A stretch of DNA of 64,000 nt from a virus, in IMG/VR virus record IMGVR_UViG_3300007640_000027. The stretch is one strand, 5' to 3'. Of this stretch, positions 3-28,178 are shown in pieces. How positions within the stretch are numbered: position 1 is the stretch's first letter; every line of letters starts with the position of its first letter. Made by a program: the position numbers and the translations under genes. The notes beneath the pieces were generated by a model, which was given only the letters and a program-made list of their open reading frames with translations, ran no database searches and was not told the origin of the DNA.

Positions 3-3000
3 TAAAAATCCAGTTGTTGCATTATATGTTCCACCACTGGTATTATGTCCAATACCTCCACCAATGGTAACTCCCAATGAACAACATTCATTGGTCGGTG
101 ATTGAATGATGTTTCTGTGACCAGATCCAATAAATGAAAATCTTGCGTTTGTTATGTTACAATAACCACCACTAATTGTTGAATAATTACCTGATGCTGT
201 ATTACTAGTACCACCACCAACTGTTGAACTATATCCTGATGCTGTATTACTAAGACCACCACCAACTGTTGAATAATTACCTGATGCTGTATTACTAGTA
301 CCACCACCAACTGTTGAATAATATCCTGATGCTGTATTATTAAGACCACCACCAACAAATGAATAGTAACCTGATGCTGTATTACTATAACCACCACTAA
401 CTGTTGAATTACCACCTGATGCTGTATTACCACCACCACCAGCAACTGTTGAATATATATTTGATGCTGTATTATTTATACCACCACCAACTGTTGAATA
501 ACCACCAGTTGCACAGTTATTACACCCACCCGCAACAGATGAACATGTTCCACTCGCACATGATCCAGAACCCACTTCCAATCTACCTGAAACAACTTCA
601 AGTGTTGTTCCATTCCATGTTAAATTACTTTCTCCATTAAGAACTCCAGCAGTATTACTACCTGTTATTAATCTGTTATCGGCATTATTATTAATGGTCG
701 CAGCACCTGATGTACCAGATGAACCACTTGTACCACTACTACCTGAACTACCACTAGTACCATTTGTTCCACTTGTACCTGAAGACCCTGAACTACCTGA
801 GGTACCAGATGAACCTGAACTTCCGCTAGTTCCTGAAGAACCACTTGATCCTGAATTTCCTGACGTACCAGATGATCCACTTGATCCAGATGTACCTGAA
901 GAACCACTACTACCGCTAGTTCCTGATGAACCACTTGATCCTGAATTTCCTGACGTACCTGACGATCCACTTGATCCGCTAGTTCCTGAACTACCTGAAG
1001 ATCCAGATGTACCGCTAGTTCCTGATGATCCACTTGATCCTGAATTTCCTGACGTACCAGATGACCCTGAACTTCCACTAGTGCCCGATGATCCGCTTGA
1101 TCCTGAGGTTCCTGAACTACCAGATGATCCCGAATTTCCTGAAGTTCCACTACTACCTGAACTACCAGATGAACCCGATGTACCACTAGAACCCGATGAT
1201 CCTGATGTTCCAGACGAACCTGACGTTCCACTTGATCCAGATGTACCTGATGATCCACTACTACCGCTAGTACCTGACGATCCTGAAGAACCACTAGTAC
1301 CCGAACTTCCTGATGATCCAGATGTACCGCTTGATCCTGATGTACCACTACTACCACTTGAACCTGATGTTCCTGAACTACCTGAAGATCCTGAAGTACC
1401 GCTAGTACCTGAAGATCCGCTTGATCCGCTAGTTCCTGATGAACCTGATGATCCACTTGTTCCACTTGAACCAGAACTTCCTGATGTTCCGCTTGTTCCT
1501 GATGACCCAGAAGTACCGCTAGTACCTGAAGTACCACTTGAACCAGAACTTCCGCTAGTCCCTGAACTTCCACTTGATCCAGATGTACCAGACGAACCTG
1601 ATGATCCTGATGTGCCGCTTGTTCCTGATGACCCAGAAGTACCGCTAGTACCTGAAGATCCACTAGAACCTGACGTACCTGAAGAACCACTTGATCCTGA
1701 ATTTCCCGATGTACCCGAAGATCCAGAACTTCCGCTAGTTCCCGAAGTACCAGACGATCCTGAGGAACCACTAGTACCCGAACTTCCGCTAGAACCTGAG
1801 GTTCCACTACTTCCTGATGAACCACTAGATCCTGATGTTCCAGATGAACCTGAACTACCGCTAGTACCATTTGTTCCACTCGTACCTGACGACCCTGAAG
1901 TTCCTGATGTACCTGACGAACCGCTAGTACCTGAAGATCCACTTGAACCTGAAGTACCCGATGATCCTGAACTACCTGAAGTACCACTAGTACCTGATGA
2001 CCCTGATGATCCACTAGTTCCTGAAGAACCGCTTGATCCTGATGTACCTGATGATCCGCTTGAACCCGAACTTCCGCTAGTTCCTGAACTACCAGATGAT
2101 CCACTTGAACCTGAAGTACCAGATGATCCTGAACTACCACTAGAACCTGATGATCCACTCGTTCCCGAACTACCTGAAGATCCACTTGTTCCACTTGTTC
2201 CACTATCACCACTTACTCCACTAGTACCACTTGATCCAGAAGTACCTGATGATCCACTTGTACCTGAAGACCCTGAACTACCTGAAGTTCCAGAAGATCC
2301 TGACGAACCACTAGAACCTGAAGTACCAGATGATCCGCTAGATCCCGAAGAACCTGATGTTCCAGATGAACCTGAACTTCCTGATGTTCCGCTTGTACCT
2401 GACGATCCACTAGTACCGCTAGTTCCACTTGAACCAGAACTTCCGCTAGTCCCTGAAGATCCGCTTGATCCTGAAGTACCGCTAGATCCTGAACTTCCAC
2501 TTGAACCTGATGTTCCGCTACTTCCGCTTGATCCTGATGTGCCTGAAGAACCTGAAGTTCCGCTTGAACCTGAAGAACCACTCGTACCCGAACTTCCTGA
2601 TGATCCACTAGTTCCTGAACTACCACTAGAACCTGATGAACCACTAGTTCCGCTAGATCCTGAACTTCCACTTGAACCAGATGTTCCGCTAGATCCTGAA
2701 CTTCCACTTGAACCAGATGTTCCGCTACTACCGCTTGATCCTGATGTACCATTCGTACCCGAAGATCCACTACTACCGCTTGACCCAGATGTACCTGAAG
2801 ATCCTGATGATCCACTAGTACCCGAACTTCCACTTGATCCTGAAGTCCCTGATGTACCACTCAAAGTTAAATTATCACGAGTAACAACATTACCAGATCC
2901 ATCAACCAATAAAATATCAATTTCAGTTGTTCCCGATGGAACATCACCAATAGCTAACTTACCCGTTATCTCAATATCACCATATAATTGTTTCAGTTTC

Positions 3001-3026
3001 TTGGAACCACCTGTAGTTGCACTCAT
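3..3026 (-). CDS. Gly-Ser/Thr collagen-like fibre protein with YadA/Hep_Hag-like head repeats (3'-partial, runs off window)
   Basis: Absent from the ORF track because it has no stop in the window. Hand translation from ATG 3026 gives MSATTGGSKKLKQLYGDIEITGKLAIGDVPSGTTEIDILLVDGSGNVVTRD, then about 239 G-[S/T]-S triplets, then NNADNRLITG...NGESNLTWNGTTL, then 15-aa GGGxxNTASGxYSTV repeats. A TATTTAT motif lies about 19 nt upstream. Confidence 0.85.
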   Translation of the reverse strand, partial: MSATTGGSKKLKQLYGDIEITGKLAIGDVPSGTTEIDILLVDGSGNVVTRDNLTLSGTSGTSGSSGSSGTSGSSGSSGTSGSSGSSGSSGTNGTSGSSGSSGTSGSSGSSGSSGTSGSSGSSGSSGTSGSSGSSGSSGTSGSSGSSGTSGSSGSSGTSGSSGTSGSSGSSGTSGSSGSSGSSGTSGSSGSSGTSGSSGSSGTSGTSGSSGTSGTSGSSGSSGTSGSSGSSGSSGTSGSSGSSGSSGTSGSSGSSGTSGSSGTSGSSGTSGVSGDSGTSGTSGSSGSSGTSGSSGSSGSSGSSGTSGSSGSSGSSGTSGSSGSSGSSGTSGSSGSSGTSGSSGSSGTSGTSGSSGSSGTSGSSGSSGTSGSSGTSGTSGSSGTSGTNGTSGSSGSSGTSGSSGSSGSSGTSGSSGSSGTSGSSGSSGTSGTSGSSGSSGTSGNSGSSGSSGTSGSSGSSGTSGTSGSSGTSGTSGSSGSSGTSGSSGSSGTSGSSGSSGTSGTSGTSGSSGTSGTSGSSGSSGTSGSSGSSGTSGSSGSSGTSGTSGSSGSSGTSGSSGSSGTSGSSGTSGSSGSSGTSGSSGSSGTSGSSGSSGTSGSSGTSGSSGTSGSSGSSGTSGSSGSSGSSGTSGNSGSSGSSGTSGSSGSSGTSGSSGSSGTSGNSGSSGSSGTSGTSGSSGSSGTSGSSGSSGTSGNSGSSGSSGTSGSSGSSGTSGSSGSSGTSGNSGSSGSSGTSGSSGSSGTSGSSGSSGTSGTNGTSGSSGSSGTSGSSGTSGAATINNNADNRLITGSNTAGVLNGESNLTWNGTTLEVVSGRLEVGSGSCASGTCSSVAGGCNNCATGGYSTVGGGINNTASNIYSTVAGGGGNTASGGNSTVSGGYSNTASGYYSFVGGGLNNTASGYYSTVGGGTSNTASGNYSTVGGGLSNTASGYSSTVGGGTSNTASGNYSTISGGYCNITNARFSFIGSGHRNIIQSPTNECCSLGVTIGGGIGHNTSGGTYNATTGFL
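150..540 (-). repeat. About 45-nt tandem coding repeats (GGGxxNTASGxYSTV), trimeric-autotransporter head (YadA/Hep_Hag)-like
   Basis: Repeated ccaccaccaactgttgaata...cctgatgctgtattac units on the + strand, 15-aa period on the minus strand. Confidence 0.75.
705..2858 (-). repeat. 9-nt-period coding repeat, about 239 Gly-(Ser/Thr)-Ser triplets
   Basis: Gly at every third residue from 2858 to 705, with rare substitutions such as GVSGDS near 2212 and GTN. Confidence 0.95.
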
Positions 3027-3062: not shown

Positions 3063-4685
3063 TTAATTTCCCCTTAATTTAAACCCAATTTCTTTTCCTT
3101 GTTTCAATTTTTTTGGACGCTTGGTTACCAAATCATTTGTTAAGTTTAATTCAATAGGGTTACCTCTAAAAAAAACTGATGAATTTTTTGTTCCTCTAGC
3201 AAGAAATCTCATTTTAAACTGATTACCTACTGATTCAAAAATATAAGTATTACCAAAACCAGGATGTTTCTCCCAAGTTTCACCATTATTATTACTAACA
3301 AATAAAACACCTTTACCTGTAGGTGTTTCAAAATAATTTGAGGTATCTAAAATCTCAACTTTGGTTATGTTGCTCTGATCTGATAATTGAAAGTCTGTTG
3401 TTGTAAATTCCCATTCTTCTTGTAATACAGGTGGTGTATCATTACTCCAAACTGAAAACGCGTATCCATCATAACCATAACCCGTATTTAACCAAAATTT
3501 AATACCTGAAGGTGAAATTATACTTTTAAAAGTTTGGCCATAAGAAGACGACCATGGATTATTTTGATAAGTTCTAATACCATCATTAGGTACATACGCA
3601 ACCATACCTGTTGTTCTGTCTACAAATCCAGTAGTAACACTACCTCCCCATCCTCTGTCACCGAGTAAATAAACAACATCGTGTTCTTCAACACCACCCA
3701 ATCTAAAATATCCATTACCAATAAAATAAGGATATTCATTACTATGATATTCAGGAGTGTTTATTGGTAAAATTTTAGTAGGTACGTTAGTATAGTTGTT
3801 ATCGTTTGGATTTAAAACACATTTAGTTATATCTATATAACCTATCCTATAATAGGATCCAACAAAAATTCTATTCCTATCTCTAGGATCAATATGTACA
3901 CCTTGAACTCTTACTGCATTACTACCCATTCCTGCACTACTAAGATTAAGTGCTCTCGCTACGGCTTCTGTATCTGATGATGCATTTGTAACTACTATTA
4001 ACCCTGCACCATCGGATCTACATCCCATATATATTCTATCGGTTTGTTCGTCGTATTGAACCCAACCATACCTTAATCCTGTTATATATGAAGAAATTGT
4101 TAGGGTTTCTGATTCTTGGGTGATTACATTCCAACGAAACACACCTGAAGAAGTTCTGTCATCAGGCATAATATATAACCAGTCACCTGCAAATGCCAAA
4201 CCATTCATATATGAATCACCAACCTCATCTGAAGGCAAACCACTTGCTGATTCGGTAATAATAGTTTTTGTTGGTTGATTTGACCAATCACCATCAAAGT
4301 CATACTTTGTTAAATTATCATATACAAAATTTCCAATAATGGCAATTTTTCTTTTTTTGTTTATTGCAAGTGAACTATAATACTCATAATTATTAACAGG
4401 TCTAAATTCACTAAATTCTTCAGAAAGTACACCTTCGTCATTAATTGAGTGTACGGCAAAACCATCACCCCACCCCATGGAAATTATATATTCTTCATCA
4501 ATTTGATAACCATCAGGATATCCAATAACGCTATCACCATTACCCGATCTTCTATGTATATCATTACTCATATGTGATTTTAATTCAGGTACCACATAAA
4601 AAGCACCACCATAAAATGAGACCACACAGTTAGAAATACTTGATATCTGATTTGTATTTGATAATTTAAATGATTCTGTTTTCAT
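3063..4685 (-). CDS. Predicted beta-propeller virion/receptor-binding protein, paralogue A
   Basis: 540 aa, beta-strand and aromatic rich, Asp-box-like FVSNNNGETW. Clearly paralogous to 4687..6309 (ISMGWGDGFAVHSI, LPSDEVG.SY.NGLAFAGDWLYI). Confidence 0.6.
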   Translation of the reverse strand: MKTESFKLSNTNQISSISNCVVSFYGGAFYVVPELKSHMSNDIHRRSGNGDSVIGYPDGYQIDEEYIISMGWGDGFAVHSINDEGVLSEEFSEFRPVNNYEYYSSLAINKKRKIAIIGNFVYDNLTKYDFDGDWSNQPTKTIITESASGLPSDEVGDSYMNGLAFAGDWLYIMPDDRTSSGVFRWNVITQESETLTISSYITGLRYGWVQYDEQTDRIYMGCRSDGAGLIVVTNASSDTEAVARALNLSSAGMGSNAVRVQGVHIDPRDRNRIFVGSYYRIGYIDITKCVLNPNDNNYTNVPTKILPINTPEYHSNEYPYFIGNGYFRLGGVEEHDVVYLLGDRGWGGSVTTGFVDRTTGMVAYVPNDGIRTYQNNPWSSSYGQTFKSIISPSGIKFWLNTGYGYDGYAFSVWSNDTPPVLQEEWEFTTTDFQLSDQSNITKVEILDTSNYFETPTGKGVLFVSNNNGETWEKHPGFGNTYIFESVGNQFKMRFLARGTKNSSVFFRGNPIELNLTNDLVTKRPKKLKQGKEIGFKLRGN

Positions 4686-4686
4686 A

Positions 4687-6309
4687 TTAAAATCTACTAC
4701 TTTTCAGTTTAAAACCTTTTGTCCTATGGATTCTATTTTTTATGGTCTTATTAACTCTATCATTGTTTAAATGAAAAATAAATGATTCACCCACGATAAA
4801 TGGTGATGTATTATTTAAACCACTGGCAACAAACTTGATTTTAACTGAATTACCTTCACTTTCAAATTCGTGAACTTTATCTAAAACATTACCATAAGTT
4901 TCCCACGTTGAACCGTTGTTATTTGTTACATAAAAATTACAACTCGTGTTTGTAGGTATAGTTAAATTCAAAGTATCAGATATAATTATCTGAGTTACAT
5001 TTTCGTTATTATCTAACATATGTATTGAAGTTTCAAACTCCCAACTATTTTGTAAAACAGGTGAAATATTACTTGGCCACACAGTAAAACTATTACCATC
5101 ACCACCCCAACCAGTACCCAACCAATATTTTGTATTATTTGGCGAATAAATTGCCTTCCAAGTATAAGAATATTCAGAACCAACATTATTGTGATCTTGT
5201 TTTGAACTCGGTGAATTTGGAATAAATGCACATTTTCCTGATTCTTGATCAAAAAAACCAGTGGTCACATCTTGACCATATCCTCTGTCTCCTACTAAAT
5301 AAAGCATATCTAATTCTTCTATTCCGTATATACCCCATAAACCAGCACCTATAAACCACGGAGAATTATTATACATATAATCAGGTGTACCAGGAGGAAC
5401 CAACTTAACAGGTATATTTGTATAATTTTGATCAGAAGGATCTAAAATACAGTTAGTTATATCTATTTTACCCATACGGTAACTTGATCCTACCCAAATA
5501 TGATTTCTATTATTTGGATCGTGATAAACACCTGGAACTCTATTTGTTCTTTGTCCTAAAGATGAATGATTAATTGAACGAGCAACTGCTTCCAAATCTG
5601 ATGATGCATCGGTAACAACTAATAAACCCACATTACTACCATAATCACCCATATATATTCTATCTGTTTGCTCATCGTATTGTACCCAACCGTATTGTAG
5701 ACCCGTAGAATATGATGCAACGGTTAATGTTTCAGTCGTTTCAGTTACAACATTCCATCTAAAAACACCTGTTGTTGTTTTATCATCAGGCACAATATAT
5801 AACCAATCGCCAGCAAAAGCCAATCCATTTGCATATGAATAACCAACTTCATCAGATGGTAAATTATTTGAAGATTCAGTCATAACCGTTTTTGTTGGTT
5901 GATTTTCCCAATCTTCACTAAAATCATACTTTGTTAAATTATCATAAACATAATTTCCCACAATTGCAATTTTTCTTGTTTTATTTACCGCAATTGATGT
6001 ATAGTTTTGATAACCATTTGCCGGTCTTAAGTCGTAGTATACTTCTGAAATTGTTCCATTATCCGCAATAGAATGAACAGCAAAACCATCACCCCATCCC
6101 ACTGAAATTATATATTCATTATCAATGTGAAAACCATCAGGATAGGCCATTACATTATCACCATAACCGTTTCTTCTACTGGTGTAGTTACTTAAGTTAG
6201 TTTGTAATTCAGGTAAAGCATAAAAGTTACTACCATAAGTTGAGATAACGCAATTAGTAACATCTGAAATTTGTGAAGTTGTTGTTATTTTAAAACTTTT
6301 AGTCGCCAT
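4687..6309 (-). CDS. Predicted beta-propeller virion/receptor-binding protein, paralogue B
   Basis: 540 aa, colinear with 3063..4685, YVTNNNGSTW motif, basic C-terminus ending GFKL. Confidence 0.6.
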   Translation of the reverse strand: MATKSFKITTTSQISDVTNCVISTYGSNFYALPELQTNLSNYTSRRNGYGDNVMAYPDGFHIDNEYIISVGWGDGFAVHSIADNGTISEVYYDLRPANGYQNYTSIAVNKTRKIAIVGNYVYDNLTKYDFSEDWENQPTKTVMTESSNNLPSDEVGYSYANGLAFAGDWLYIVPDDKTTTGVFRWNVVTETTETLTVASYSTGLQYGWVQYDEQTDRIYMGDYGSNVGLLVVTDASSDLEAVARSINHSSLGQRTNRVPGVYHDPNNRNHIWVGSSYRMGKIDITNCILDPSDQNYTNIPVKLVPPGTPDYMYNNSPWFIGAGLWGIYGIEELDMLYLVGDRGYGQDVTTGFFDQESGKCAFIPNSPSSKQDHNNVGSEYSYTWKAIYSPNNTKYWLGTGWGGDGNSFTVWPSNISPVLQNSWEFETSIHMLDNNENVTQIIISDTLNLTIPTNTSCNFYVTNNNGSTWETYGNVLDKVHEFESEGNSVKIKFVASGLNNTSPFIVGESFIFHLNNDRVNKTIKNRIHRTKGFKLKSSRF

Positions 6310-6499: not shown

Positions 6500-9400
6500 T
6501 TAAGTTCTTACGTTACTATATATCCAGAATTGATGGTATTTGTCTGCATCTGCTTCAGGAACTAAATAGAAATACGATTCATCTAATCCTGTATAGATTG
6601 TAGTCGCACTACCTTCATTTAATCCTCCAAGAGTTGTTGCCGCGTCTTTTTTAATTGTAATATTTAACAATCTGTTGTCATCTGGAAGATCATAAGTTAT
6701 CCAATAACCTTCAACACTTTGATCTACATTCATATTTGTAACATCAGCAATTGTTCCACTAACAACTACGCTACTTGAAATTGGTGATCCGTAAACACCT
6801 GTCTTGATCGGATAAACTTTATAATATATAGTCGCGTTTTTATTGAATGTATCATCAACAATTGACATTGTTGTTGCGATATCATCACTCTTAACTAAAC
6901 CAACTAAATTCCAATCTGTAGTAGTTCCAACTGAAGACCATACTTCATATCTATCAATATCTGAAGTACCACTTTCATCAAATTGGACTAATACTTCATC
7001 ACCTGTTTGAGTCAATGTTAATGTTGAAGGTGCTGTTGGACCATTTGGTGTTATAAATGGTAATGTTAATACTGTACCATCATAAGTTGCGTTAGATTCA
7101 ACCGTACCACCACTAGTTGCAGCATTATATGTAATAATACCATCATTTGTTGTTCCACTAAGAAGTATTAAACCTGAAGTACCTGATGAACCCGAAGATC
7201 CACTTGTACCTGATGAACCACTACTTCCGCTAGATCCACTCGTTCCCGAACTTCCTGAAGAACCTGATGTTCCTGAAGATCCTGACGAACCACTAGAACC
7301 CGACGTACCTGAACTACCAGACGATCCTGACGTTCCACTACTACCACTTGAACCTGATGTTCCTGAACTTCCTGAAGATCCAGATGTCCCACTAGTTCCT
7401 GAAGATCCTGAAGTACCAGATGATCCGCTAGATCCTGATGAACCCGAAGAACCTGATGTTCCTGAACTACCTGAAGAACCAGATGTTCCGCTAGTACCAC
7501 TTGAACCTGATGTTCCTGAAGTACCTGATGAACCCGAAGAACCTGATGTTCCTGAAGTACCTGATGAACCACTAGATCCTGACGTACCACTACTACCACT
7601 TGATCCTGATGTTCCTGAACTACCTGAAGTACCAGATGAACCACTAGATCCTGATGTACCACTACTACCACTTGAACCTGATGTTCCGCTAGTACCCGAT
7701 GATCCGCTTGTACCTGACGATCCACTAGTTCCTGAACTACCAGAACTTCCCGATGATCCACTAGTACCTGAAGTACCACTTGAACCTGATGATCCTGAAG
7801 TACCGCTCGTTCCTGATGTTCCTGAAGATCCAGATGTTCCGCTAGTTCCTGATGATCCTGAAGTACCGCTGGTTCCCGAAGAACCTGACGACCCTGATGA
7901 ACCTGAAGTTCCGCTAGACCCACTACTACCACTAGTACCTGATGAACCACTAGATCCTGAACTACCACTAGTTCCTGAAGAACCTGATGTACCGCTTGCA
8001 CCGCTTACACCTGAACTACCTGATGATCCTGATGAACCGCTTGTTCCGCTTGACCCTGAACTACCACTAGTACCAGATGAACCTGAACTTCCGCTAGTAC
8101 CTGACGATCCACTTGAACCCGATGTACCTGAAGTTCCGCTAGACCCACTACTTCCCGATGATCCGCTAGTACCTGAACTACCACTACTACCGCTAGTACC
8201 TGACGATCCTGACGACCCACTTGATCCAGATGTACCTGACGAACCTGATGATCCACTAGTTCCTGAAGAACCTGAAGAACCGCTTGTTCCTGATGTTCCA
8301 CTTGTACCCGAAGATCCTGATGTTCCTGACGTACCACTAGAACCAGAACTTCCTGATGATCCTGAACTACCGCTAGTACCTGAAGAACCGCTTGATCCCG
8401 AAGAACCTGATGTTCCACTACTACCGCTTGATCCTGATGTACCACTAGTACCAGAAGAACCTGAAGTACCGCTTGTTCCCGAACTACCACTAGTACCTGA
8501 AGATCCACTACTACCACTAGTACCTGATGACCCACTTGAACCACTACTACCTGAAGTACCAGACGAACCTGAACTACCAGATGATCCACTTGTTCCTGAA
8601 CTACCTGAAGTACCACTACTTCCACTAGAACCAGAGGTTCCACTTGATCCTGAAGATCCACTAGTTCCTGATGTACCACTTGAACCTGAGGTACCGCTCG
8701 TTCCCGACGAACCTGATGAACCACTAGTTCCACTTGAACCTGATGATCCGCTTGTTCCACTACTACCACTTGAACCTGAGGTACCACTAGATCCTGATGA
8801 CCCCGAAGAACCTGAACTTCCTGATGACCCTGATGTTCCGCTTGAACCTGATGTTCCTGAACTACCACTACTACCGCTAGTTCCCGAAGTACCAGATGAA
8901 CCTGAAGTTCCAGAAGTTCCACTGTCACCACTCACACCACTAGTCCCTGAAGATCCACTTGATCCCGAACTACCTGATGACCCTGATGTTCCGCTTGAAC
9001 CTGATGTTCCTGAACTACCACTACTACCGCTAGATCCCGAAGAACCACTACTACCTGAACTACCAGACGTACCTGATGTTCCACTGCTTCCGCTAGTTCC
9101 TGATGAACCACTTGACCCTGAAGATCCTGAAGTACCACTAGAACCAGAACTTCCTGATGTACCACTTGAACCAGAAGAACCTGACGTTCCGCTTGTACCT
9201 GAACTTCCAGATGTACCAGATGTACCAGATGAACCTGAGGTACCGCTCGTTCCTGAACTACCTGATGATCCTGATGTTCCGCTTGAACCACTGCTTCCAC
9301 TGGTACCCGACGAACCAGATGACCCTGAAGAACCGCTAGATCCCGAACTACCCGATGATCCACTCGTTCCTGATGTGCCTGATGAACCAGATGTTCCACT

Positions 9401-15368: not shown

Positions 15369-15408
15369 ATTGAACCTCAGTTGTAACATATTTTTTTAAC
15401 AAAAAAAA

Positions 15409-17901: not shown

Positions 17902-19185
17902 TTATAGGATATTCACCCAACCCAAAGACTTATACATATATAAACCTTCTAAATCTTCTGCCGAGGAATCCGTACAGTAAACCAATAAACCAGGTAATGG
18001 ACTTGGTATACTTATTCTTTGTGCTTGAGTCATTCTTGGTATTAATAACCCTTGATTGGTACTTGCCAATTCTAAAATTGCACATACGGGAGATGTTGTT
18101 CCTGTACCTATGGAAACTCCCGAATCACCACTAAAAGTAAGGTGATTTCCGTCTTGGTCCACTACTCTTTCTGACTGTAGTGTACCGTCATTATTATAAA
18201 TGTTGTTTGTGTCTTGGAAATTATATATTCCTGAACCACTATATGTTAATACCTGACCAACATTCGCTGTTGATGTGTCAACATCATTAATCTCACTTAA
18301 ATTAGGTGTGAAATCAGGTCTTACAAAGATTGAGCCGTTAGATGATGCTTTTAATACTATCGCGACTTTTGTTTTGATTGCGGGCTCGGCAGGTTGAACA
18401 TTTGTTAATCCACCAGGTCTTGTTGGATCAGAATATAAAATATCACCATCTAACCACGTTTCACCATTTTGTCCTCTTGTATCAATATCTCTAACTTCAC
18501 CAAATGCCGTTACCCATCCATCTCCTCCGTTGGTGATGTCGTGAGTTGCAACACCTATAACATAATCCGCAGGAAATGACCCGTCAGTTATTGCGGAAGC
18601 AATTAATATTCTTCCTGAATTACCTGTGGTACCTGATGCCATAACTACAACACCATTGTCTATCTGTTGTCCTGATTGATTTTTAACTCTAAACCAATTC
18701 TCTTGACCTACTTGTAATGAAGTGTCTGAATAGGCGTTATAAATAACTAATGTTTCATAATCAAGATCAAAATAAACTCTACCCTCTGAAGATGTAACAC
18801 CTGTTGATTCAAAAGGTGTAAAATCAATATAATCAACATTTACACTACCACCCGTTAAGTGTAAGGTATTACCATCTAAGTTCGCAAATCTTTCAGATGT
18901 GAAACTTGCATCTGTGTTGTAAATATTGATTGTGTTTGCGGAAGTGAAAAATCCTGTAACATTGAAGGTCCCTCCCGTATTATTAGTAAATGTCGCAGTA
19001 CCATTTGTATCATTATAAGTACCACCTGTAACAAACGTATCAGGCAAGGAAGAAACTTCTCTATATTTCAACTCGCTACCATCAATTACAACAACTTGGT
19101 TTATGTTGTTATTGAGGTCAACGGTAGAAATAAAAGTCTTTCCACTTACTGATAATCCGTTTCTTGCTACTAGTTCTCTTGACAT
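17902..19185 (-). CDS. Fibre/decoration protein, FVTGGT family, C-terminal 'STNQGLLIPRMT' domain
   Basis: N-terminus MSRELVARNGL shared with 19258..21612. C-terminal domain shared with 15409..17856. Confidence 0.65.
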   Translation of the reverse strand: MSRELVARNGLSVSGKTFISTVDLNNNINQVVVIDGSELKYREVSSLPDTFVTGGTYNDTNGTATFTNNTGGTFNVTGFFTSANTINIYNTDASFTSERFANLDGNTLHLTGGSVNVDYIDFTPFESTGVTSSEGRVYFDLDYETLVIYNAYSDTSLQVGQENWFRVKNQSGQQIDNGVVVMASGTTGNSGRILIASAITDGSFPADYVIGVATHDITNGGDGWVTAFGEVRDIDTRGQNGETWLDGDILYSDPTRPGGLTNVQPAEPAIKTKVAIVLKASSNGSIFVRPDFTPNLSEINDVDTSTANVGQVLTYSGSGIYNFQDTNNIYNNDGTLQSERVVDQDGNHLTFSGDSGVSIGTGTTSPVCAILELASTNQGLLIPRMTQAQRISIPSPLPGLLVYCTDSSAEDLEGLYMYKSLGWVNIL

Positions 19186-19211
19186 TTTTCTATGTTAAAA
19201 AATTTGGCTAT

Positions 19212-19257: not shown

Positions 19258-21612
19258 TTAAGCATTTATCGCAACCGCTCTTGTATTAGCAATTATGGAT
19301 AAACCAGCACCTCCACTAAAGGTAACATTACCACTCGCATCTGCCGCCAATTCAGGATTAGTTCCAAATGTTCCTAAATCCATAGTTGACCAATCTGCGT
19401 ATTCTACTCCACTATTGTGGAAAATAGCAGTAAAGAAACCTGAACGTGCAGCAGTACCATCAGTCATTGTGTATTCTACATGAACTGCCTTATAATCAGA
19501 TGGTGAAACATTAAATAATGTTCCTGAAGCACCTGACCCTGTTACACGAAGGGTTTGTTCAGATGAAATTTTAATATCACTATCATCATTTCTTGTAAGA
19601 GTTGCCGCAGAATATTCTACAGTTGCACCCGTTACAAAAGTATCCGATCCTGAGAAACCTGTAATTGTAATATCAGATTCTAATCCACCATTAATACCTA
19701 AAGTAAGTGTTCCTGTTTGACCAGGATTACCTGCATAAGTACCACCAGTAATAAATGGTAATTCAAATGGTGAAGTACTTAATGTACCTGTTCCTGAGAA
19801 TGATACCGCCCAATCTGATGAGTATGAAATACCTGTGATTGCTTGAATAGTTGAATTAACTACCGCACCACCATTTTTAGTAACCGAGATTACGTTGTTC
19901 GCTTCAGTAACTCCTGTTACGAAATCAGTACCTAATGATAATGTAGCATCATAACTGTTTGATCCCTCCCAAGTAATGTCACCTGTAGCCAAACTAAATG
20001 TTGCACCCGTAATTGCATCAATTGCGATACTTCCAGTAGCACCATTAGAACCTACAAAAGACACATCATTGTTAGTCTGAGTTAAACCTGTTAAAGCCGT
20101 AACAGTACCTAATGAATCTGTATTCCCTAAATTAGTTTCTAAAGTAATTGCGTTATCTAAAAGTGTACCACCTGTTACAAATTCAAATGCACCTGTTAAT
20201 GTTACAGGTCCGAAATCACCATCAGTATATTCCAAAGTTACAGTACCTGCCGCTTGTGATAATGTACCACCAGTTACGTAAGTATCTGCACCTTCAAATC
20301 CTGAAATTACGATATCTGATTCAACACCACCATTAATTGATAATGTTAAGTCACCTGTACCTTGATTATATGAACCACCAGTAATAAATGGTAATTCAAA
20401 TGAAGGTGCTGCAACATTAAATGAAGAACCTGAAATTCCCCAATCACTATAAGCCACTTCAGTAATCGCACTTACGTTAAGTGTTACATCAATTAAGTCA
20501 GAACCTGATAAAGTAATATCATTATCTGAAATAGTTGCACCTGTAAATGCTTGAATGTTGTAGTCGGTTGTTCCTGCACCTGCGTTACCAACAGTAATAA
20601 TGTTGTTCGCTTCAGTTACACCTGTTACAAAGTCAGTACCTAAATCAATATTTGAAATATTGTTAGAACCTTCTACTGTAATAATACCTGTTGAAGGATC
20701 AAATGTACCACCAGTAACTGCATCAATCGCAATACTTCCAGTTGCACCGTTAGAACCTGCAAAAGATACATCATTATTAGTTTGAGTTAAACCTGTTAAA
20801 GCAGTAACTGTACCTAATGAATCTGTATTACCTAAATTAGTTTCTAAAGTAATACCATTATCTGTTAATGTACCACCCGTCACAAATTCAAATGCACCTG
20901 TTAATGTTACAGGACCATATCCTTGATTGAAAGTTAATTCTACTTCACCAGTAGATTGAGTTAACGTACCGCCTGTTACGTGAGTATCGGTATTTGTTAA
21001 TCCTGTGATCTGAATTGCACTTTCTAAACCATCTTTAATACCTAAACTGATTGTACCTGCATTGTAAGAACCACCAGTAATAAATGGTAATTCTAATGGT
21101 GATGTTGAGATTGCACCTGTACCTGCATAAGAAACACCCCATACTCCACTATCTGCAGAATAATCAGTTAATCCTGTGATTGCGACTACTTGTAAGTTAG
21201 TATCTGCACCACCGTTGTCCGTCAACGTGATTTGATTAGATGAAATTGTTGCAGCAGAGAAGTAATCCCAACCGCCAACTTGAAATGTACCTCCACTGTT
21301 GTTTGTGAAAGTTATTTGTCCGGCAGCATCATCATAAGTGCCACCTGTTAAAAATACGTTACCATTGGTAACGGTAAATGTTCCTCCTGTTGTGTTTGTA
21401 AACAAGAGATCTTTGTCTCCAGTGCCCGTAACCGTTCCGCCACTTACGAACACCTGACTGTCAAGTCCGGCTGCCGCGAGAAGTTTTACTTCTCTAGTTG
21501 ACGGGTCGATTGCTAATACACTATTCAACAAATTTTGGTCTGTAGAAACTGTTTGTAGGAATGTCGATCCCGACACTCTCAAACCATTTCTTGCTACTAA
21601 TTCATTTGCCAT
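19258..21612 (-). CDS. Fibre protein, FVTGGT repeat family, with an internal module duplication
   Basis: Many VTGGT repeats and a duplicated GPVTLTGAFEFVTGGTL...TDSLGTVTALTGLTQTNNDVSF block. C-terminal DGTAARSG...WSTMDLG resembles that of 21640..23040. Confidence 0.7.
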   Translation of the reverse strand: MANELVARNGLRVSGSTFLQTVSTDQNLLNSVLAIDPSTREVKLLAAAGLDSQVFVSGGTVTGTGDKDLLFTNTTGGTFTVTNGNVFLTGGTYDDAAGQITFTNNSGGTFQVGGWDYFSAATISSNQITLTDNGGADTNLQVVAITGLTDYSADSGVWGVSYAGTGAISTSPLELPFITGGSYNAGTISLGIKDGLESAIQITGLTNTDTHVTGGTLTQSTGEVELTFNQGYGPVTLTGAFEFVTGGTLTDNGITLETNLGNTDSLGTVTALTGLTQTNNDVSFAGSNGATGSIAIDAVTGGTFDPSTGIITVEGSNNISNIDLGTDFVTGVTEANNIITVGNAGAGTTDYNIQAFTGATISDNDITLSGSDLIDVTLNVSAITEVAYSDWGISGSSFNVAAPSFELPFITGGSYNQGTGDLTLSINGGVESDIVISGFEGADTYVTGGTLSQAAGTVTLEYTDGDFGPVTLTGAFEFVTGGTLLDNAITLETNLGNTDSLGTVTALTGLTQTNNDVSFVGSNGATGSIAIDAITGATFSLATGDITWEGSNSYDATLSLGTDFVTGVTEANNVISVTKNGGAVVNSTIQAITGISYSSDWAVSFSGTGTLSTSPFELPFITGGTYAGNPGQTGTLTLGINGGLESDITITGFSGSDTFVTGATVEYSAATLTRNDDSDIKISSEQTLRVTGSGASGTLFNVSPSDYKAVHVEYTMTDGTAARSGFFTAIFHNSGVEYADWSTMDLGTFGTNPELAADASGNVTFSGGAGLSIIANTRAVAINA

Positions 21613-21639: not shown

Positions 21640-23040
21640 TTATAGCTGGTTCTTTCCTAATCTAACGTCCCATGAACCACTTGAGACGCTGGCTATTAAT
21701 CTTGCATTTCCACCTGAAATATCAAATGTCCACTCAAATGCCGCGGTTGATCCAATATCTATTGTTGATACATCATTAAATTGAACTTGAGTTCCATCCC
21801 ATACCGCATGAACTTCTCCTGATCTATAATTTGTACCATCATTAATAACATAATCATATGCAACCGATTGATATAAACTTAAACTCGTCACATCAACTAC
21901 CGTATTATTGGTTACACCTGATGCTTCCACATAATCAAAATGAGTTAAGATATCCAAACCAGTTACGGTTACTGAACTATCATCATCTTTATCTAATGTG
22001 ATTTCACCGTCAGCGTATGTTCCACCTGTAATTGACGCAGAAAAACCTGTAACTTGGAAAGTCGTACCATCCGACATTCCTAATGTTAATGTCGTTGGTG
22101 AATAAGTCGCTCCCGTTAAATAAGTGTCTTCACTTGTAAATCCAGTGATTACTACCGTTGAATCGTCTGATTTCGTAAGGGTTAAAGTATTTGCCGCAAA
22201 AGTACCACCCGTAACCGAAATATCTGATGAAACAAAACCCGTAACAATAAGGTCCGTTTCAAGTCCACCAGCATAACTTAATGTTAATGTGCCAGCAGAA
22301 TAACTGGAACCACTAATAAACGGTAAGGTCACCGTATCTGATGACCCATCTGTATTGGCTAAATCTAAATCATAATCACCACCATATGTGATACCCGATA
22401 TGGAAGTTGTTGTTGAACCTGTCGTGAAACCTGTAACAGTAAAAGTTCCACCTGTTGTGTTTGAGAAGGTAGCAACACCTGTTGCATTATTGTATGTACC
22501 ACCTGTTACGGTAATATCTGTTCCGTAGAATATTTTCCAACGTGCATTATCTCTTGTTACTCCACTAACACCTTCAATTGATGAATCTAACCACGCATCA
22601 ATAAATGCCGTACCACCCGCAGTAGTTGTTGATACAGTTGTACCATAAGTACCTTCAGTTGTTGATCCCGAAGCCGAATTCCATAAACTTTCAAAATTAG
22701 GTATCGTATATTGATATGTTTTTTGTGTTTCGTGAACATAAACCAACATACCAAGTCTTCTACGACCTGACGAAATATTATCGGAATTTAATGTTAAAAT
22801 ATCAGGTAAAAAAGCTAAAGTTCTTTTTGAATATTGAATGGGTATCGTATTTCCCGTAAATTCAATAACCCCCGTAGAACCACTCGGAACGGTATAAATA
22901 AGGTCTTGGAGAGTATATACCTCCATATAACCCCCAATCTGTAACACGCTAAAATTAGTACCAAAGGTCTTATCCCTTAATACCGAATCAGGTGTACTAA
23001 TATTTATAGATGATAAAGGGTTTTTATATACAAAAGACAT
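21640..23040 (-). CDS. Fibre protein, FVTGGT repeat family
   Basis: RRRLGMLVYV motif, ITVTGGTY repeats, C-terminal YDYVINDGTNYRSGEV...STIDIG domain. Confidence 0.65.
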   Translation of the reverse strand: MSFVYKNPLSSINISTPDSVLRDKTFGTNFSVLQIGGYMEVYTLQDLIYTVPSGSTGVIEFTGNTIPIQYSKRTLAFLPDILTLNSDNISSGRRRLGMLVYVHETQKTYQYTIPNFESLWNSASGSTTEGTYGTTVSTTTAGGTAFIDAWLDSSIEGVSGVTRDNARWKIFYGTDITVTGGTYNNATGVATFSNTTGGTFTVTGFTTGSTTTSISGITYGGDYDLDLANTDGSSDTVTLPFISGSSYSAGTLTLSYAGGLETDLIVTGFVSSDISVTGGTFAANTLTLTKSDDSTVVITGFTSEDTYLTGATYSPTTLTLGMSDGTTFQVTGFSASITGGTYADGEITLDKDDDSSVTVTGLDILTHFDYVEASGVTNNTVVDVTSLSLYQSVAYDYVINDGTNYRSGEVHAVWDGTQVQFNDVSTIDIGSTAAFEWTFDISGGNARLIASVSSGSWDVRLGKNQL

Positions 23041-23107: not shown

Positions 23108-25549
23108 TTATGACACTGTGTTTCCTTTAAAATACAATGTGTTTGTTGTGTTATCCAATCTTACTCCCTGATCAGTAAATGTAGTATATAATCTATATGT
23201 TCCAGGAGCAAATGAACCACCTGGATTATTTACACTATAAGTATATACTGATGATGCCATACTCGCAGTAACAAAAGTGTTCGGTCCGTTTCCATTAGAA
23301 AAATCTATACTAACTTGTCGGTTTCCACCGCCACCAATACCTTCATCGGGAATTACCCAAGTATACCAAGCATTACCCGGTACAGTACCACCTGATACTT
23401 CAGTTGTAACAAAATTGTACTGTACTATCGCATTACCTTCACTGTCATTACCACCAGTACTTTGAGGTATTGTTTGAGTGATAATCACAGGTACACTTCC
23501 TGTTCCTGCATTTAGACTATAATAATCTAAATAATGACCAATATCTGTGTTTGATGTTGGTGCCAATCCATTAGTAAATCCATAGAAACCAGCACCTTGT
23601 CCTGCCATATATGTACCAATATCACCCGCAATTGTATCAGGTTCAATTAATAGATAGGCAGTTGTTGGTGTTCCCGCAGAAGTACTAGTCGGAGTAGGTG
23701 TTGTTGCTGGAACTGTTTCCGTTGGAGTCGCAGTCACAGTTAAGGTCGGTGTACTCGTTGGTGTACTTGTAATTGTTGGCGTGTTAGTTGGCGTGCTAGT
23801 TACTGTTTGTGTTGGCGTATTACTTACCGTTTGTGTTGGAGTAGCTGTTACCGTAGGAGTACTAGTCACCGTCTGAGTTGGAGTCGCAGTTATTGTTGTT
23901 GTCGGCGTGCTCGTTACTGTCGGTGTATTAGTCGGAGTACTACTTACCGTTTGTGTTGGTGTCGCTGTTACCGTTGAGGTTGGTGTCGCCGTTACCGTAG
24001 GAGTACTAGTAACTGTCTGAGTTGGTGTTGATGTTACCGTTGGTGTATTAGTTACCGTTTGAGTCGGAGTTGCGGTTATCGTAGGCGTATTAGTTACTGT
24101 TTGAGTTGGCGTGCTCGTTACTGTCGGCGTATTAGTTGGAGTACTAGTCACCGTCTGTGTCGGTGTTGCTGTTACTGTAGAAGTTGGTGTCGCAGTTACC
24201 GTAGGTGTACTAGTCACTGTTTGTGTAGGTGTAGTCGTTACTGTCGGCGTATTAGTTACCGTTTGTGTTGGTGTTGCAGTTACAGTTGGTGTATTTGTAG
24301 GCGTATTACTTACCGTTTGTGTTGGTGTCGCTGTTACTGTAGAAGTTGGTGTACTTGTAATTGTTGGCGTGTTAGTTACCGTCTGAGTTGGAGTACTAGT
24401 TACAGTCGGGGTATTAGTTGGAGTATTACTTACCGTCTGTGTAGGTGTTGCGGTTATTGTTGGTGTATTAGTCACAGTTTGAGTAGGTGTACTCGTTACT
24501 GTAGGTGTACTAGTTGGAGTATTACTTACCGTTTGTGTCGGCGTTGAAGTTATTGTCGGTGTATTAGTTGGAGTACTACTTACCGTCTGTGTTGGTGTCG
24601 CAGTTACCGTAGGTGTATTAGTTACCGTTTGAGTCGGAGTCGCAGTTACAGTTGGAGTATTGGTCAAAGTTTGTGTTGGTGTCGCTGTTACTGTCGGTGT
24701 ATTTGTTACCGTCTGAGTTGGAGTATTACTTGGTGTATTAGTTACAGTTTGAGTAGGTGTGGCAGTCACCGTTGGTGTATTAGTTGGCGTACTACTCACT
24801 GTTTGTGTTGGTGTACTAGTAATTGTTTGTGTCGGAGTATTAGTCACCGCTGGTGTTTCACTTGGCGTAGGTGTGTTCGTTAGCGTTTGTGTTGGTGTAC
24901 TGGTAACTGTAGGTGTATTAGTTACTGTTTGAGTCGGAGTACTAGTTACTGTCGGTGTATTAGTTACTGTTTGAGTCGGAGTACTAGTCACTGTTGGTGT
25001 GTTAGTAACCGTTTGTGTTGGAGTTGAAGTCACCGCAGGTGTTTCACTTGGCGTAGGTGTGTTCGTTAACGTTTGTGTTGGTGTACTACTCGCTGTTGGT
25101 GTATTTGTAACTGTCTGCGTTGGAGTTAACGTTAGTGTCGGTGTCGGAGTATTAGTTACACCCGCAGTTTCAGTAGGTGTTGGAGTTGCCGTGGCAGGTG
25201 CAGTACTTGTTAATGTTAATGTTACCGTTGGAGTATTGGTTGGTGTAGGAGTTGGTGTTTGCGTAAATCCAGTTAATGTAACCGTAGGTGTAGGAGTTGG
25301 TGTGACATCTTCAACAACAACTATTTTCTTGGAAACCGTTTCATCATTACAACCAGGTTGTTTGTTAACTACAAAAATCGTATATTGAATTCCCGAGGGT
25401 GATCCAGGTAAATCTAAAACTACCCCCGCAACTATCTGATCACGGGTTATACCCGTTTCAATAGGTGTTGTGGAGGTTGAACCTGTATATATATTAAAAG
25501 GGCCTACAGCGTTTGAACTGAGAGTTAACCTAATTATTACCTGCGACAT
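23108..25549 (-). CDS. Pro/Thr-rich mucin-like stalk protein with small N- and C-terminal domains
   Basis: About 540 aa of TPT(Q/V/N)T(V)T repeats between an ~80-aa N domain and an ~190-aa C domain. Confidence 0.75.
23690..25305 (-). repeat. Degenerate TPTxT(V)T coding repeat
   Basis: 6-8-aa Thr/Pro units with diversified codons. Confidence 0.9.
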
Positions 25550-25625: not shown

Positions 25626-28178
25626 TTAACTTAAACAATCTATGTCATAGTCAATTGATAATGTTAATTTAAAATAGGCGTCTCTTAATGGGTCTTCATC
25701 CCCATTACAGTCAGAAAATATTTGTAAAGTATTTGTGTTCAAATTCAGTCTAAAACTTTCAATTTCAGATATGGTGTTCAATATATCTCTAATCGCATTT
25801 CTATATTGACTATCTGTTGGAACATCATTTAGAGTTGTTCCTGTATAAAAACTTTCGGTTATATTATAACTGATACCGTCACCAGTTAACACCACATTAA
25901 CAGAAAATTCAGCAGTGTTTAATGTACAACCTGTACTTCCGCTAATTAAATCCATATAAGATTCATTTAGCATTTCGGATAAACCTCGTTTTTGTTTGGA
26001 TGTGGTTACAAAACCTGATTCACAAATTTCAAATATTTCATAACATGCAACGTTATTTGGTTTGCATATAATTGAAACTGCCTTTGTTTTTGAACAACCG
26101 TTTGCATCGGTTAAGGTTACGGTGTATGTTCCACCTGATAATCCTGTAATGGTGGATCCTGTTTGTCCGTTATTCCATAAATAAGTGAAAGGTGGTTCCC
26201 CGTCATAGATTGATACCGTTGCGGATCCGTCAATACCCAACGTACAATCAACCCCCGTCAATATAAAATCAATCTCTGGCGTTCCACTTATTGAAAAACT
26301 TGTTGTTGACGTGCAACCATTATTATCTTCAACAGATAAACTATAACTTCCCTCAGATAATTCATTATTGGTAAATGCGCTTGAGAAGTTGTTTAAGCTT
26401 TGTTCAATTATGGTACCTGAGGTGGTATCTGTTAAAGAATAAATTAAAGGAAATGCAACTGCGGTAACTCCTGATGTTACCGTGGCGGTAAAGATTCCAT
26501 TTGTTCCACCACAAGTAGCACCCGTTGTTGAAATGGATACGTTAAATGGATCTTGATTGGCAATTACAATGGTCTGATTATATTCACAACCCTCATTAGA
26601 TATTACTTTTAAGTAATACGTATCACCCGATAAATTATCAAAGGTGTGTGAGGATGACTGAGTTGTAATGGTGGTCACAGATCCACTGGTTCCACCTGTA
26701 AGGGTATATGTTAATATGGTACCTGATGGTGAATTGATATTCACTTCAATAGAACCGTTATTGCCACAAGTGGAATTATTCACATTTACTGAATCTATTG
26801 TAAATGCACCATCTGAAAGAATTGCAACTGATTCTGTTATTTGGCAATATCCGTTATCAAAAACCTGAACTGTATATACAGTAGGACAAAGTCCTGTTAG
26901 TGTTATTGATGTGGAATTGGTTGTTACCGTATATCCGTTGGAAACAGAATAATAATATGGTGCAGATCCACCTGAGATATTCATTGTAAACGAACCATCA
27001 CAATCAAAGCAAGATGCGGTTATTGTGTTAAAATTCAATAACCCCAAAGAACTAACTGTTGGAATGGTGGCGGTTTTGTTGGTTTGGCAACCGTTGCTGT
27101 CTGTCACCACCACGCTCACATTACCTGCGGTTAAACCTGTTGCGGTGGAAGTGGTTTGTCCGTTTGACCATAAGTAAGTATAAGGTCCAACACCTGTTTG
27201 ACCTGTCACCGTTGCAATACCTAAATTGGGAACACATTGTGAGTCACCCGTGATTGCAAAACCGAAATCTAATGCGTCACTTTCATCAATAACAACGGTC
27301 TCAGTAAATGCGGTTCCACCGGCATAATCTTCAACATAAACGTGGTAAAAACCATAATCCAAATTGGAAAAAACGTATGATGAATTATTTGTGGTAACAA
27401 CATTTATTGCACTTCCGTTTTTATATAATGTTAAATCATAAGGTGCAGATCCTGATGCAACAAACACTTCCAATTCACCTGTTGTTGGATCACCACAAGT
27501 TGTTCCTGAAACATTATTTATGGATGCACATATGCAACCTGTAACCTCAACGTTAATATAAAAATCACTATTGATATTACCTGTGGTATCATTTAATCTA
27601 AAAACATATGTTCCACCAGTAAGACCTGAATATGTAAAAGGTCCGTTGCCCGTTTGTGCACTTAAACTACCAGGTATTGTATTTTGTAAAGTATAAGGCG
27701 GAACACCATCTGCCGGTGTTATAACAATTGTACCTCCACTTGGATTTTCACAAACACCCGTAACGGCAAAAGAATAATTTAAAGGACCCTGATAACACGT
27801 TGGAACACAATTGTTTGGTGATACCGTAATACCAAAATAAGGTTCCGTGGTATCCACACAAAACGTCTGACCACTTCCAACACCCGTTCTTTCAATACCA
27901 CAACAATCCGTGAAACTCCAAGCACCACTTAATGTCGTTGCAGAATAACAATCATCCAATAATCCTTGTGATTGCAAACAGTTTGTACAATTTGTATGTG
28001 AGGGTACCAAAAATGTTTGAACGCTCGTACCACCTGTAATTACACCTGTATATTCATAACAAATACCGCTATATATAACGGTATTTCCAACCGAGAAATT
28101 CGCATCTTCAATTGTGAAGATTTGATCCCCTGGGTTTGGAGTACTACATCCTGAAAATACATAAGTGTTTAATGCCAT
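25626..28178 (-). CDS. SprB-repeat (Ig-like) virion protein, Cys-rich N-terminus
   Basis: Repeats GVGPYTYLWSNGQTTSTATGLTAGNVSVVVTDSNGC and GEPPFTYLWNNGQTGSTITGLSGGTYTVTLTDANGC match the SprB repeat consensus. Confidence 0.75.
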   Translation of the reverse strand: MALNTYVFSGCSTPNPGDQIFTIEDANFSVGNTVIYSGICYEYTGVITGGTSVQTFLVPSHTNCTNCLQSQGLLDDCYSATTLSGAWSFTDCCGIERTGVGSGQTFCVDTTEPYFGITVSPNNCVPTCYQGPLNYSFAVTGVCENPSGGTIVITPADGVPPYTLQNTIPGSLSAQTGNGPFTYSGLTGGTYVFRLNDTTGNINSDFYINVEVTGCICASINNVSGTTCGDPTTGELEVFVASGSAPYDLTLYKNGSAINVVTTNNSSYVFSNLDYGFYHVYVEDYAGGTAFTETVVIDESDALDFGFAITGDSQCVPNLGIATVTGQTGVGPYTYLWSNGQTTSTATGLTAGNVSVVVTDSNGCQTNKTATIPTVSSLGLLNFNTITASCFDCDGSFTMNISGGSAPYYYSVSNGYTVTTNSTSITLTGLCPTVYTVQVFDNGYCQITESVAILSDGAFTIDSVNVNNSTCGNNGSIEVNINSPSGTILTYTLTGGTSGSVTTITTQSSSHTFDNLSGDTYYLKVISNEGCEYNQTIVIANQDPFNVSISTTGATCGGTNGIFTATVTSGVTAVAFPLIYSLTDTTSGTIIEQSLNNFSSAFTNNELSEGSYSLSVEDNNGCTSTTSFSISGTPEIDFILTGVDCTLGIDGSATVSIYDGEPPFTYLWNNGQTGSTITGLSGGTYTVTLTDANGCSKTKAVSIICKPNNVACYEIFEICESGFVTTSKQKRGLSEMLNESYMDLISGSTGCTLNTAEFSVNVVLTGDGISYNITESFYTGTTLNDVPTDSQYRNAIRDILNTISEIESFRLNLNTNTLQIFSDCNGDEDPLRDAYFKLTLSIDYDIDCLS

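Follow-up and report, generated by a model that had tools for sequence, protein, structure and literature searches.

Mosaic long-fibre genes beside the baseplate genes of an uncultured phage, and the common fibre unit behind their N-terminal motif

The window analysed here is a stretch of 64,000 nt from the virus record IMGVR_UViG_3300007640_000027. It contains a cluster of ten genes, predicted as open reading frames (ORFs), at positions 3-28178 of the minus strand, the strand that carries every gene of the window. An earlier note on this DNA had pointed to a short motif, L.I..V.....(V/I)LV.D....V..R, near the N-terminus of five long fibre-like proteins, which we name after the position of their first nucleotide (3026, 15304, 17856, 19185 and 21612). 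It proposed that this motif is an anchor that plugs all of these fibres into one socket on the virion. The locus thus raises the question of what the motif is for, and what kind of fibre set it belongs to. The five peptides were all found at the proposed starts. The reading that we prefer, with a probability of about 0.62, is that the cluster is a variable host-recognition module with fibres that are likely mounted on the baseplate, and that the motif is the trimer core of a generic fibre unit, not necessarily the key to a common socket.

According to this proposal, the cluster would encode at least six homotrimeric fibres, two with collagen shafts and four with shafts of beta repeats, together with accessory proteins that resemble adhesins: a pair of propeller paralogs, one protein with a Pro/Thr linker and one with SprB repeats. 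The N-terminal ends of the fibres would most likely mount on or near the baseplate, and the C-terminal tips would face the host surface and bind its receptors. The motif would supply the hydrophobic core of a single trimeric beta-helix unit of intertwined chains, with a G-x-G...P...L capping-loop signature of the type known from S74 fibres and from mosaic adhesive trimer (MAT) fibres, and this unit would most likely keep the three chains in register. Duplication and recombination among starts, shafts and tips may have diversified the set, and many of the genes would have a late-promoter-like TATTTAT element of their own.

To characterize the N-terminal starts, a profile of what we call module A (alignment A3) was built from three window proteins and four orthologous starts from two related contigs (L001 and L002) and searched against 1.84 billion representative proteins. 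A second profile was made from 367 instances of the unit in the best 150 matches of that search. The second profile matched the 17856 protein at E 6e-27 (full module, residues 1-82, nt 17611-17856), the 15304 protein at 3e-21 (residues 1-70, nt 15095-15304) and the 3026 protein at 4.6e-7 (a partial module, residues 6-52, nt 2871-3011). The 19185 and 21612 proteins gave no score with it (E>1). These two share an N-terminus of their own (BLAST 4.6e-13), start B, at nt 19042-19185 and 21475-21612. In profile-profile comparison, start B aligned with module A at P 0.004-0.01, in the register that the earlier note had proposed, and the 3026 start did so at P 7e-5. In leave-one-out models made from window sequences only, the five proteins fell into subgroups that were barely connected. 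Judged by these comparisons, the motif is common to the 3026, 15304 and 17856 proteins firmly and to the other two weakly; these two are not significantly related to the first three, and a single anchor for all five proteins is not supported. A sixth fibre, the 23040 protein, opens with a different start C of about 170 aa (nt 22531-23040), which brings the number of start types among the six fibres to at least three. The AlphaFold2 (AF2) model of the 23040 protein was poor (mean predicted local distance difference test, pLDDT, 46.8) and gave no fold for start C or for the tip of this protein. Shared starts were also seen in Flavobacterium phage immuto (L005, 31093-38457): two adjacent fibre/spike proteins share a start of their own, MAIT(L/F)RT...AL(T)...MD.NFSS, and a third begins with MANEHIINNDVQVSGSLNV, resembling start B of the window (MANELVARNGLRVSGSTF).

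Module A is one copy of a unit of about 75 residues that is by no means restricted to protein starts. The profile search, a check of the kind that the earlier note had suggested, returned no fewer than 1379 proteins with the unit at E<=1e-3, in most of which it forms internal tandem repeats. Among the 150 top matches, the majority hold 4-19 internal copies per protein. P0162, which is secreted and bears the sorting domain Por_Secre_tail, carries four complete units, each of which ends in the motif (e.g. VVVADASGNLAVRD), and P0129 and P0153 are made up of ERMRIDSSGNVGIGT-type runs. The unit is likewise internal in proteins of isolated phages, namely the annotated tail fibre of Roseobacter phage CRP-823 (approximately residues 171-234 of 588), the annotated tail fibre gp39 of Pelagibacter phage HTVC168P, a member of the Autographiviridae (approximately 743-795 of 1061), and the tail fibre and tailspike of immuto. 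Because the unit is usually internal and repeated, and also occurs in non-viral proteins such as secreted proteins of Bacteroidota, module A does not qualify as a dedicated plug. On this sequence evidence, the motif is the core of a generic and very common fibre building block.

Solved structures indicate what this building block may look like. MAT fibres of Bdellovibrio bacteriovorus (Bd3182, Bd2133, Bd1334 and others; PDB 8ojn, 8ond, 8oml, 8ol4; Caulton et al. 2024, PMC10769870) contain intertwined trimeric beta-helices bounded by capping loops and related to T5 pb1 and the K1F stalk (PMC10769870). The A3 profile matches P0162 at E 4.5e-12 and P0153 at 5.9e-13; P0162 in turn matches 8ojn at 1.1e-6, in an alignment that spans the whole unit including GGVVID...YRKTN, and P0153 matches 8ond at 1.8e-13. 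Module A is in this way connected to solved MAT segments by sequence homology through intermediate repeat proteins. The printed consensus of the MAT capping loop is V-G-G/N-pi-x-x-P-x-x-x-L (PMC10769870). By eye, a similar stretch was seen in the 17856 start (G-F-G-V-L-T-P-T-N-L), and two more precede the STTKG tips described below (V-G-V-G-V-S-T-P-A-A-S-A-V-L and S-I-G-T-G-T-T-S-P-V-C-A-I-L), all with a spacing one residue off the consensus.

The oligomeric state was modelled with three copies of residues 1-110 of the 17856 protein. The trimer scored 0.81, compared to 0.00 for the best of three controls. In the calibration of the tool, 20 of 30 proteins solved as a pair of identical chains reached this mark, as did 1 of 23 solved as a single chain; these counts are only a rough guide here, where three copies and a self-made alignment went into the model. 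Agreement between runs was at least 93% of the contacts, with a partner pLDDT of at least 81. The contacts of lowest error are those among the three copies of residues 67-69 (V-L-V) on the threefold axis, and the interface also includes residues 53-55 and 74-78. The N-terminal part of the 17856 protein is thus predicted to be an intertwined homotrimer, in which the motif would supply the strands buried at the core of a single generic unit. In our reading, which follows the packing seen in the model, the motif would be conserved because three chains have to pack against each other and not because it has to fit a socket. The unit probably forms the proximal stub of the fibres. For annotation, this means that a short conserved motif at the N-terminus of fibres may be a trimer core and not a docking surface.

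Behind these starts, the modules are reassorted. Starts A and B of the window both occur with the so-called STTKG tip, and starts B and C both occur with the DGT.RSG tip. In three related contigs (L001, L002 and L006), a protein of 555-557 aa joins start C to the STTKG tip, which is also the commonest form among database homologs, and the 15304-type start sits on a non-collagen shaft with a different end. The STTKG tips of the 17856 and 19185 proteins (nt 15412-15714 and 17905-18207) match each other at E 3e-28, and the DGT.RSG tips of the 21612 and 23040 proteins (nt 19261-19605 and 21643-21993) at E 2e-9. The idea of a combinatorial set, in which starts, shafts and tips are reassorted into modular long fibres, is therefore well borne out by the paralogs in the window and the hybrids in its relatives, and it is the best-supported part of what the earlier note had proposed. 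The cluster clearly illustrates how fibres evolve by combination in a marine jumbo-phage lineage of which little is known, with three starts, two shafts, at least three tips and hybrids in relatives.

Two kinds of shaft are joined to these starts. The 3026 gene (3..3026) runs over the window edge at its 3' end and codes for at least 1008 aa. Its product has a proline-free collagen shaft of 240 Gly-x-y triplets (residues 57-776, nt 699-2858; Pfam Collagen, E 9e-102). The giant fibre of 2934 aa encoded at 6500..15304 has 879 Gly-Ser/Thr-Ser triplets, again free of proline (residues 77-2713, nt 7166-15076; E 0). Both runs are unbroken, so that by sequence the shafts qualify as collagen-like. The other four fibres have repeats of the FVTGGT type: eight copies in the 815-aa protein encoded at 15409..17856, which has further beta repeats as well, one in the 427-aa protein at 17902..19185, eleven in the 784-aa protein at 19258..21612 and three in the 466-aa protein at 21640..23040. 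Two more kinds of shaft had been claimed, a Pro/Thr-rich one and one of SprB repeats. Both are present in the cluster, but the proteins that carry them lack the motif.

The tips are similarly varied. Residues 777-1008 of the 3026 protein (nt 3-698) contain UspA1/YadA-like head repeats (UspA1_rep, PF18792; 34.9 bits with a cut-off of 27, E 1.2e-8). Together with the STTKG and DGT.RSG tips, this leaves only one of the proposed tip kinds in doubt, the FN3 domain in the 221-aa C-terminal region of the 15304 protein (residues 2714-2934, nt 6503-7165). This region is FN3-like by eye only, and Pfam detected no fn3 family in it even at E<=1. Pfam showed no S74 chaperone in any of the six fibres, and a profile of the STTKG tip found nothing in the PDB.

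The 19185 protein has a beta-tulip knob in its middle (residues 160-295, nt 18301-18708), ahead of the STTKG tip. The AF2 monomer is confident only at this knob (pLDDT 84-92). Structural comparison gave VIA Z scores of 10.6 to 8qsy, 10.5 to Pam3, 9.3 to T1, 7.0 to the base of phi29 gp8.5 and 6.2 to lambda gpD, and the Pfam family Phage_cement_2 matched at E 1.2e-4 with 22.9 bits, below its cut-off of 24. A C-terminal fragment of phi29 gp12 shares the fold as well, and Foldseek gave the knob E values of 8e-4 to 1e-2 in this comparison with beta-tulip proteins. The structural neighbours of the 19185 protein in BFVD carry the names Mtd_N, S74-chaperone, collagen, Stf-repeat and tail fibre (E 1e-21 to 1e-12). 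The knob is found behind quite different starts as well, and at the very N-terminus of a protein in another contig (L003). A cement protein that binds the threefold sites of the capsid would be a small stand-alone protein or an N-terminal base, and here the knob lies in mid-protein of a 427-aa fibre. A head fibre or a decoration protein was considered for 19185 on account of the knob and rejected as the leading interpretation, since the closest relatives of the knob are long fibre-type proteins. In our view, the knob is a putative trimeric element of a fibre, and attachment to the capsid is the less likely case.

Several of these results weigh against the reading that we prefer. If folded as a triple helix, the 879 triplets of the 15304 shaft would measure about 750 nm (own calculation with 0.286 nm per residue). 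Such a length would be odd for a baseplate fibre and far exceeds that of known tail fibres. In its beta-tulip fold, the 19185 knob resembles capsid cement proteins and the base of the phi29 head fibre (Z 7-10.6), so that this fibre could sit on the capsid. When the window proteins and the A3 profile were searched against the PDB, there was no significant direct match. The trimer score may owe something to the likeness of module A to the solved MAT, T5 and K1F fibres. Finally, the proteins of this phage clade that carry module A do so once each and at the N-terminus only, as a docking role would predict as well.

A rival possibility is that the fibres plug by a common N-terminal module into one repeated socket on capsid, neck, sheath or baseplate, giving a hairy particle like phAPEC6, CBB or Atu_ph07 that serves host search or sticking to particles. 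The constant position of module A while shaft and tip change, the three A-type and two B-type paralogs in one genome, the cement-like knob and the very long collagen shafts would all fit such a particle, and hairy jumbo phages with related fibre-gene arrays are documented (PMC7247149, PMC5259590). On the other hand, there are at least three start types and not one, and the unit is generic: it sits inside tail fibres of isolated phages, and secreted proteins of cells, for which there is no virion to plug into, contain it too. The conserved residues are modelled as a buried trimer core and not as an exposed surface, and beta-tulip knobs are also present in proteins annotated as tail fibre and in the phi29 gp12 appendage. 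No candidate for the socket could be named; for a 568-aa protein on the baseplate side, looked up in the Atlas as a candidate gp10-like socket, no informative family was returned. We regard the common socket as unlikely, albeit worth weighing.

A more specific variant is that module A, with start B as its distant version, is a baseplate-docking domain like the N-terminal parts of P22-like tailspikes or T7 gp17, and that the paralogs compete for or share a few sites. Its position in the clade would agree with this, and so would the 78% identity of orthologous A starts and the conserved pair of neighbouring A-type genes, exactly two per contig, in three related contigs. Against it, identity between the 15304-type start and its counterparts in relatives reaches only 30-32%, and the unit is internal in the fibre of a T7-like phage, HTVC168P. 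The resemblance of the motif to residues 526-552 of T4 gp10 could be taken as a hint of docking, but the match of the A3 profile is not significant (E 0.28) and is a lead only. About 10 of the best 150 database matches have a single N-terminal module A, in proteins of 249-1299 aa with differing continuations. A conserved proximal end combined with a variable distal end, as seen in the carriers of module A, is the usual pattern of phage fibres. In sum, we consider a dedicated docking domain quite improbable, and a generic trimer unit at the base of the fibres remains our preferred reading. The few residues ahead of module A follow the pattern M-A-N-x-G-x-x-Y; they, or module A itself, may touch a baseplate protein.

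The position of the genes agrees with a role in the tail. A gp25-like baseplate wedge gene (42595-43080; PHROG 261, 8.2e-18) and a gp6-like one (40751-42589; PHROG 219, 4.4e-21) come first in the order of transcription, followed by seven large genes without assigned family (28181-40707) and then by the ten genes of the cluster. By its wedge protein, the closest isolated phage is immuto (28% identity), and an unannotated 484-kb record of an uncultured phage reaches about the same score. Immuto has the same order of wedge genes, with annotated tail fibre and tailspike genes a few genes downstream. Together with the upstream gp25-like and gp6-like genes, this synteny places the cluster where tail-fibre genes are found in the structural block of tailed phages. 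The DNA of the cluster gave no match to isolated phages (megablast). The clade has relatives in IMG/VR (among them IMGVR_UViG_3300028388_004019, 3300020207_000025 and 3300017914_003070); one related contig is 183.7 kb long at an estimated completeness of 60%, and the clade is therefore jumbo-sized. The source is an uncultured jumbo myovirus, probably with a host among the Flavobacteriia or other Bacteroidota.

This location also bears on the idea that some of the proteins are not virion parts and act instead as released or cell-associated adhesins made late in infection. The close relatives of their modules in cellular secreted proteins would speak for it. Yet the fibres begin with M-A-N or M-S, and no hydrophobic leader or signal peptide is visible at these N-termini; moreover, the genes lie directly in the structural block on the strand of the baseplate genes, and many of them share an upstream motif with other late-looking genes. 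Released adhesins are thus very improbable compared to fibres on the virion.

The upstream motif in question is TATTTAT, which was said to precede most genes of the cluster. It lies 19-56 nt before the ATG in five of the ten (3026, 15304, 19185, 23040 and 25549), which is half and not most of them. Across the window, the 70-nt segments upstream of genes contain eight copies, with 1.1 expected, and none of 2000 shuffles reached eight. A function as a late-promoter element is plausible. A scan for sigma-70 promoters found 44 sites compared to 50.5 in shuffled sequences, that is, no excess, and a terminator scan gave 15 compared to 8.8, with no convincing terminators on the minus strand.

The earlier note had also rated the cluster as the best candidate for an undescribed system. 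This part does not hold, since mosaic sets of receptor-binding phage fibres, hairy jumbo phages (PMC7247149, PMC5259590) and the MAT superfamily (PMC10769870) are already in print. The cluster is a rich but ordinary case of variation in host-binding phage fibres and not a new kind of system. Like MAT fibres, the window fibres have many paralogs, conserved starts, chimeric tips and a predicted intertwined trimeric beta-helix unit, linked by the intermediate repeat proteins and with stretches that resemble the capping-loop signature by eye. MATs, in contrast, are secreted by cells and begin with a signal peptide, after which comes a conserved N-terminal domain of some 130 aa, whereas the window proteins are encoded by a phage and show no signal peptide, three start types, collagen or FVTGGT shafts and no S74 in Pfam. 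Because they lack both the signal peptide and the MAT base domain, the window fibres are, as far as their sequences tell, users of the MAT unit and not members of the superfamily. What the comparison reveals is one structural unit that links phage fibres, secreted fibres of Bacteroidota and the MAT fibres of Bdellovibrio.

Several receptor-binding proteins in one phage are familiar from CBA120 (TSP1-4), phi92 and T4 with its long and short fibres. Adsorption complexes with many fibres and spikes have been described for the large myoviruses RaK2 and phiK64-1 (PMC10253068). The window shares with such phages the location of several receptor-binding proteins next to baseplate genes, the conserved N-terminal and variable C-terminal parts and the modular evolution. 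It differs in its collagen or FVTGGT shafts and in that the analysis detected neither gp10-like branching domains nor depolymerase beta-helix spikes. The hairy jumbo phages phAPEC6, CBB and Atu_ph07 have many extra fibres and related fibre-gene arrays, and host interaction by entanglement has been proposed for them (PMC7247149, PMC5259590, PMC6102473). They resemble the source of the window as jumbo myoviruses with fibre-gene arrays. They are, however, unrelated lineages that infect Proteobacteria, and their hairs were seen by electron microscopy, whereas this phage is known from its genes alone; searches of phage collections, to which the comparison was limited, found no sequence relationship to them. 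The S74-type fibres T5 pb1 (4UW8) and the K1F endosialidase stalk (3GW6), which have been compared with Bd3182 (PMC10769870), also have a trimeric beta-helix domain between capping loops. In those fibres, the domain precedes a C-terminal S74 chaperone and forms a ligand cleft, whereas in the window the unit opens the protein and S74 is absent.

The STTKG domain, about 65 residues long, occupies opposite ends of phage-like and bacterial proteins. In a pattern scan that took a single genome from each species, 532 related stretches came up, most of them in Bacteroidota. In the ORFs of the best 78 loci of that scan (L010-L087), STTKG lies within 80 residues of the start in 62 of 74 and at the C-terminus in none of the 74, and by a rough pattern test a signal-peptide-like start is present in 58 of 70 complete-looking ORFs. 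In phage-like metagenomic homologs, by comparison, the domain is at the extreme C-terminus in all 61 that have it. Both samples are biased by the way in which they were collected. Behind STTKG, the bacterial proteins have Peptidase_S74, YadA_head, Lcl_C or a weakly matching sorting domain of the type IX secretion system. Such continuations (S74, YadA-head, lectin-like or type IX sorting domains) amount to a MAT-like architecture.

In the bacterial proteins, STTKG comes right behind the signal-peptide-like leader. The N-terminal domain that takes this position in MATs has been interpreted as the cell-proximal mount (Caulton et al., PMC10769870). If the bacterial STTKG domain is such a mount, the STTKG tip of the phage would be a copy of the base of a host fibre. 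The phage could then have turned the fibre-mounting domain of its host into a receptor-binding tip that docks on the host's own fibre mount, an idea that we consider rather unlikely. The reverse case, in which the bacterial fibres are phage fibres mounted the other way round, is possible as well. A plain alternative is that STTKG is a terminal trimer cap that closes the beta-helix at either end. The opposite placement provides a testable lead, both to the receptor of the phage and to the way in which Bacteroidota mount their fibres.

The remaining four genes of the cluster encode the accessory proteins. Between the two collagen fibre genes (3063-6309, minus strand) lie two paralogs of 540 aa each (3063..4685 and 4687..6309), which share 55% identity and lack a fibre module. 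The protein encoded at 3063-4685 had no Pfam, PHROG or NCBIfam match. According to Atlas features and structural neighbours, the pair falls next to propeller families, and its own clusters are viral; the two are probably beta-propellers, which we note as a lead only. The 813-aa protein encoded at 23108..25549, for which orthologs were found in the three related contigs L001, L002 and L006, lacks module A and start B. It consists of an N-domain of 80 aa, a Pro/Thr-rich linker of about 540 aa (62-66% P+T across approximately residues 100-600) and a C-domain of 190 aa (PHROG 15511). The last protein, encoded at 25626..28178, is rich in cysteine, 850 aa long and likewise without module A or start B, and contains SprB repeats (Pfam 2.2e-11), an Ig-like stretch and a Hoc-like PHROG match (7e-5). 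Most parts of the fibres themselves had no match in PHROGs, Pfam or NCBIfam. Database homologs carry the family tag PF26696, and no paper mentioning PF26696 was found.

Some minor observations were made along the way. By eye, the 28178 and 31129 proteins both end in a Cys-flanked segment of the form F-Y-T-G-x...D-x-P, which was also seen at the start of a protein in the related contig L006 (2073-3596); BLAST at E 1e-3 did not link the carriers. Genes for NrdA, NrdB, a DnaB-like helicase, an exonuclease, a UvsX-like recombinase and SSB (43211-51059, minus strand) are located between two baseplate-related groups (40751-43080 and 58534-63518). Hairpins were seen in two leaders. The leader of the 15304 gene (15305-15375, minus strand) consists of TATTTAT, about 18 nt, a GC-rich hairpin of 9 bp (AAGGAGGGA...TCCCTCCTT), AGCCTAAAAAATT and the ATG. 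In the leader of the 19185 gene (19186-19245, minus strand), a hairpin lies ahead of TATTTAT, followed by AGCCAAATTTTTT.

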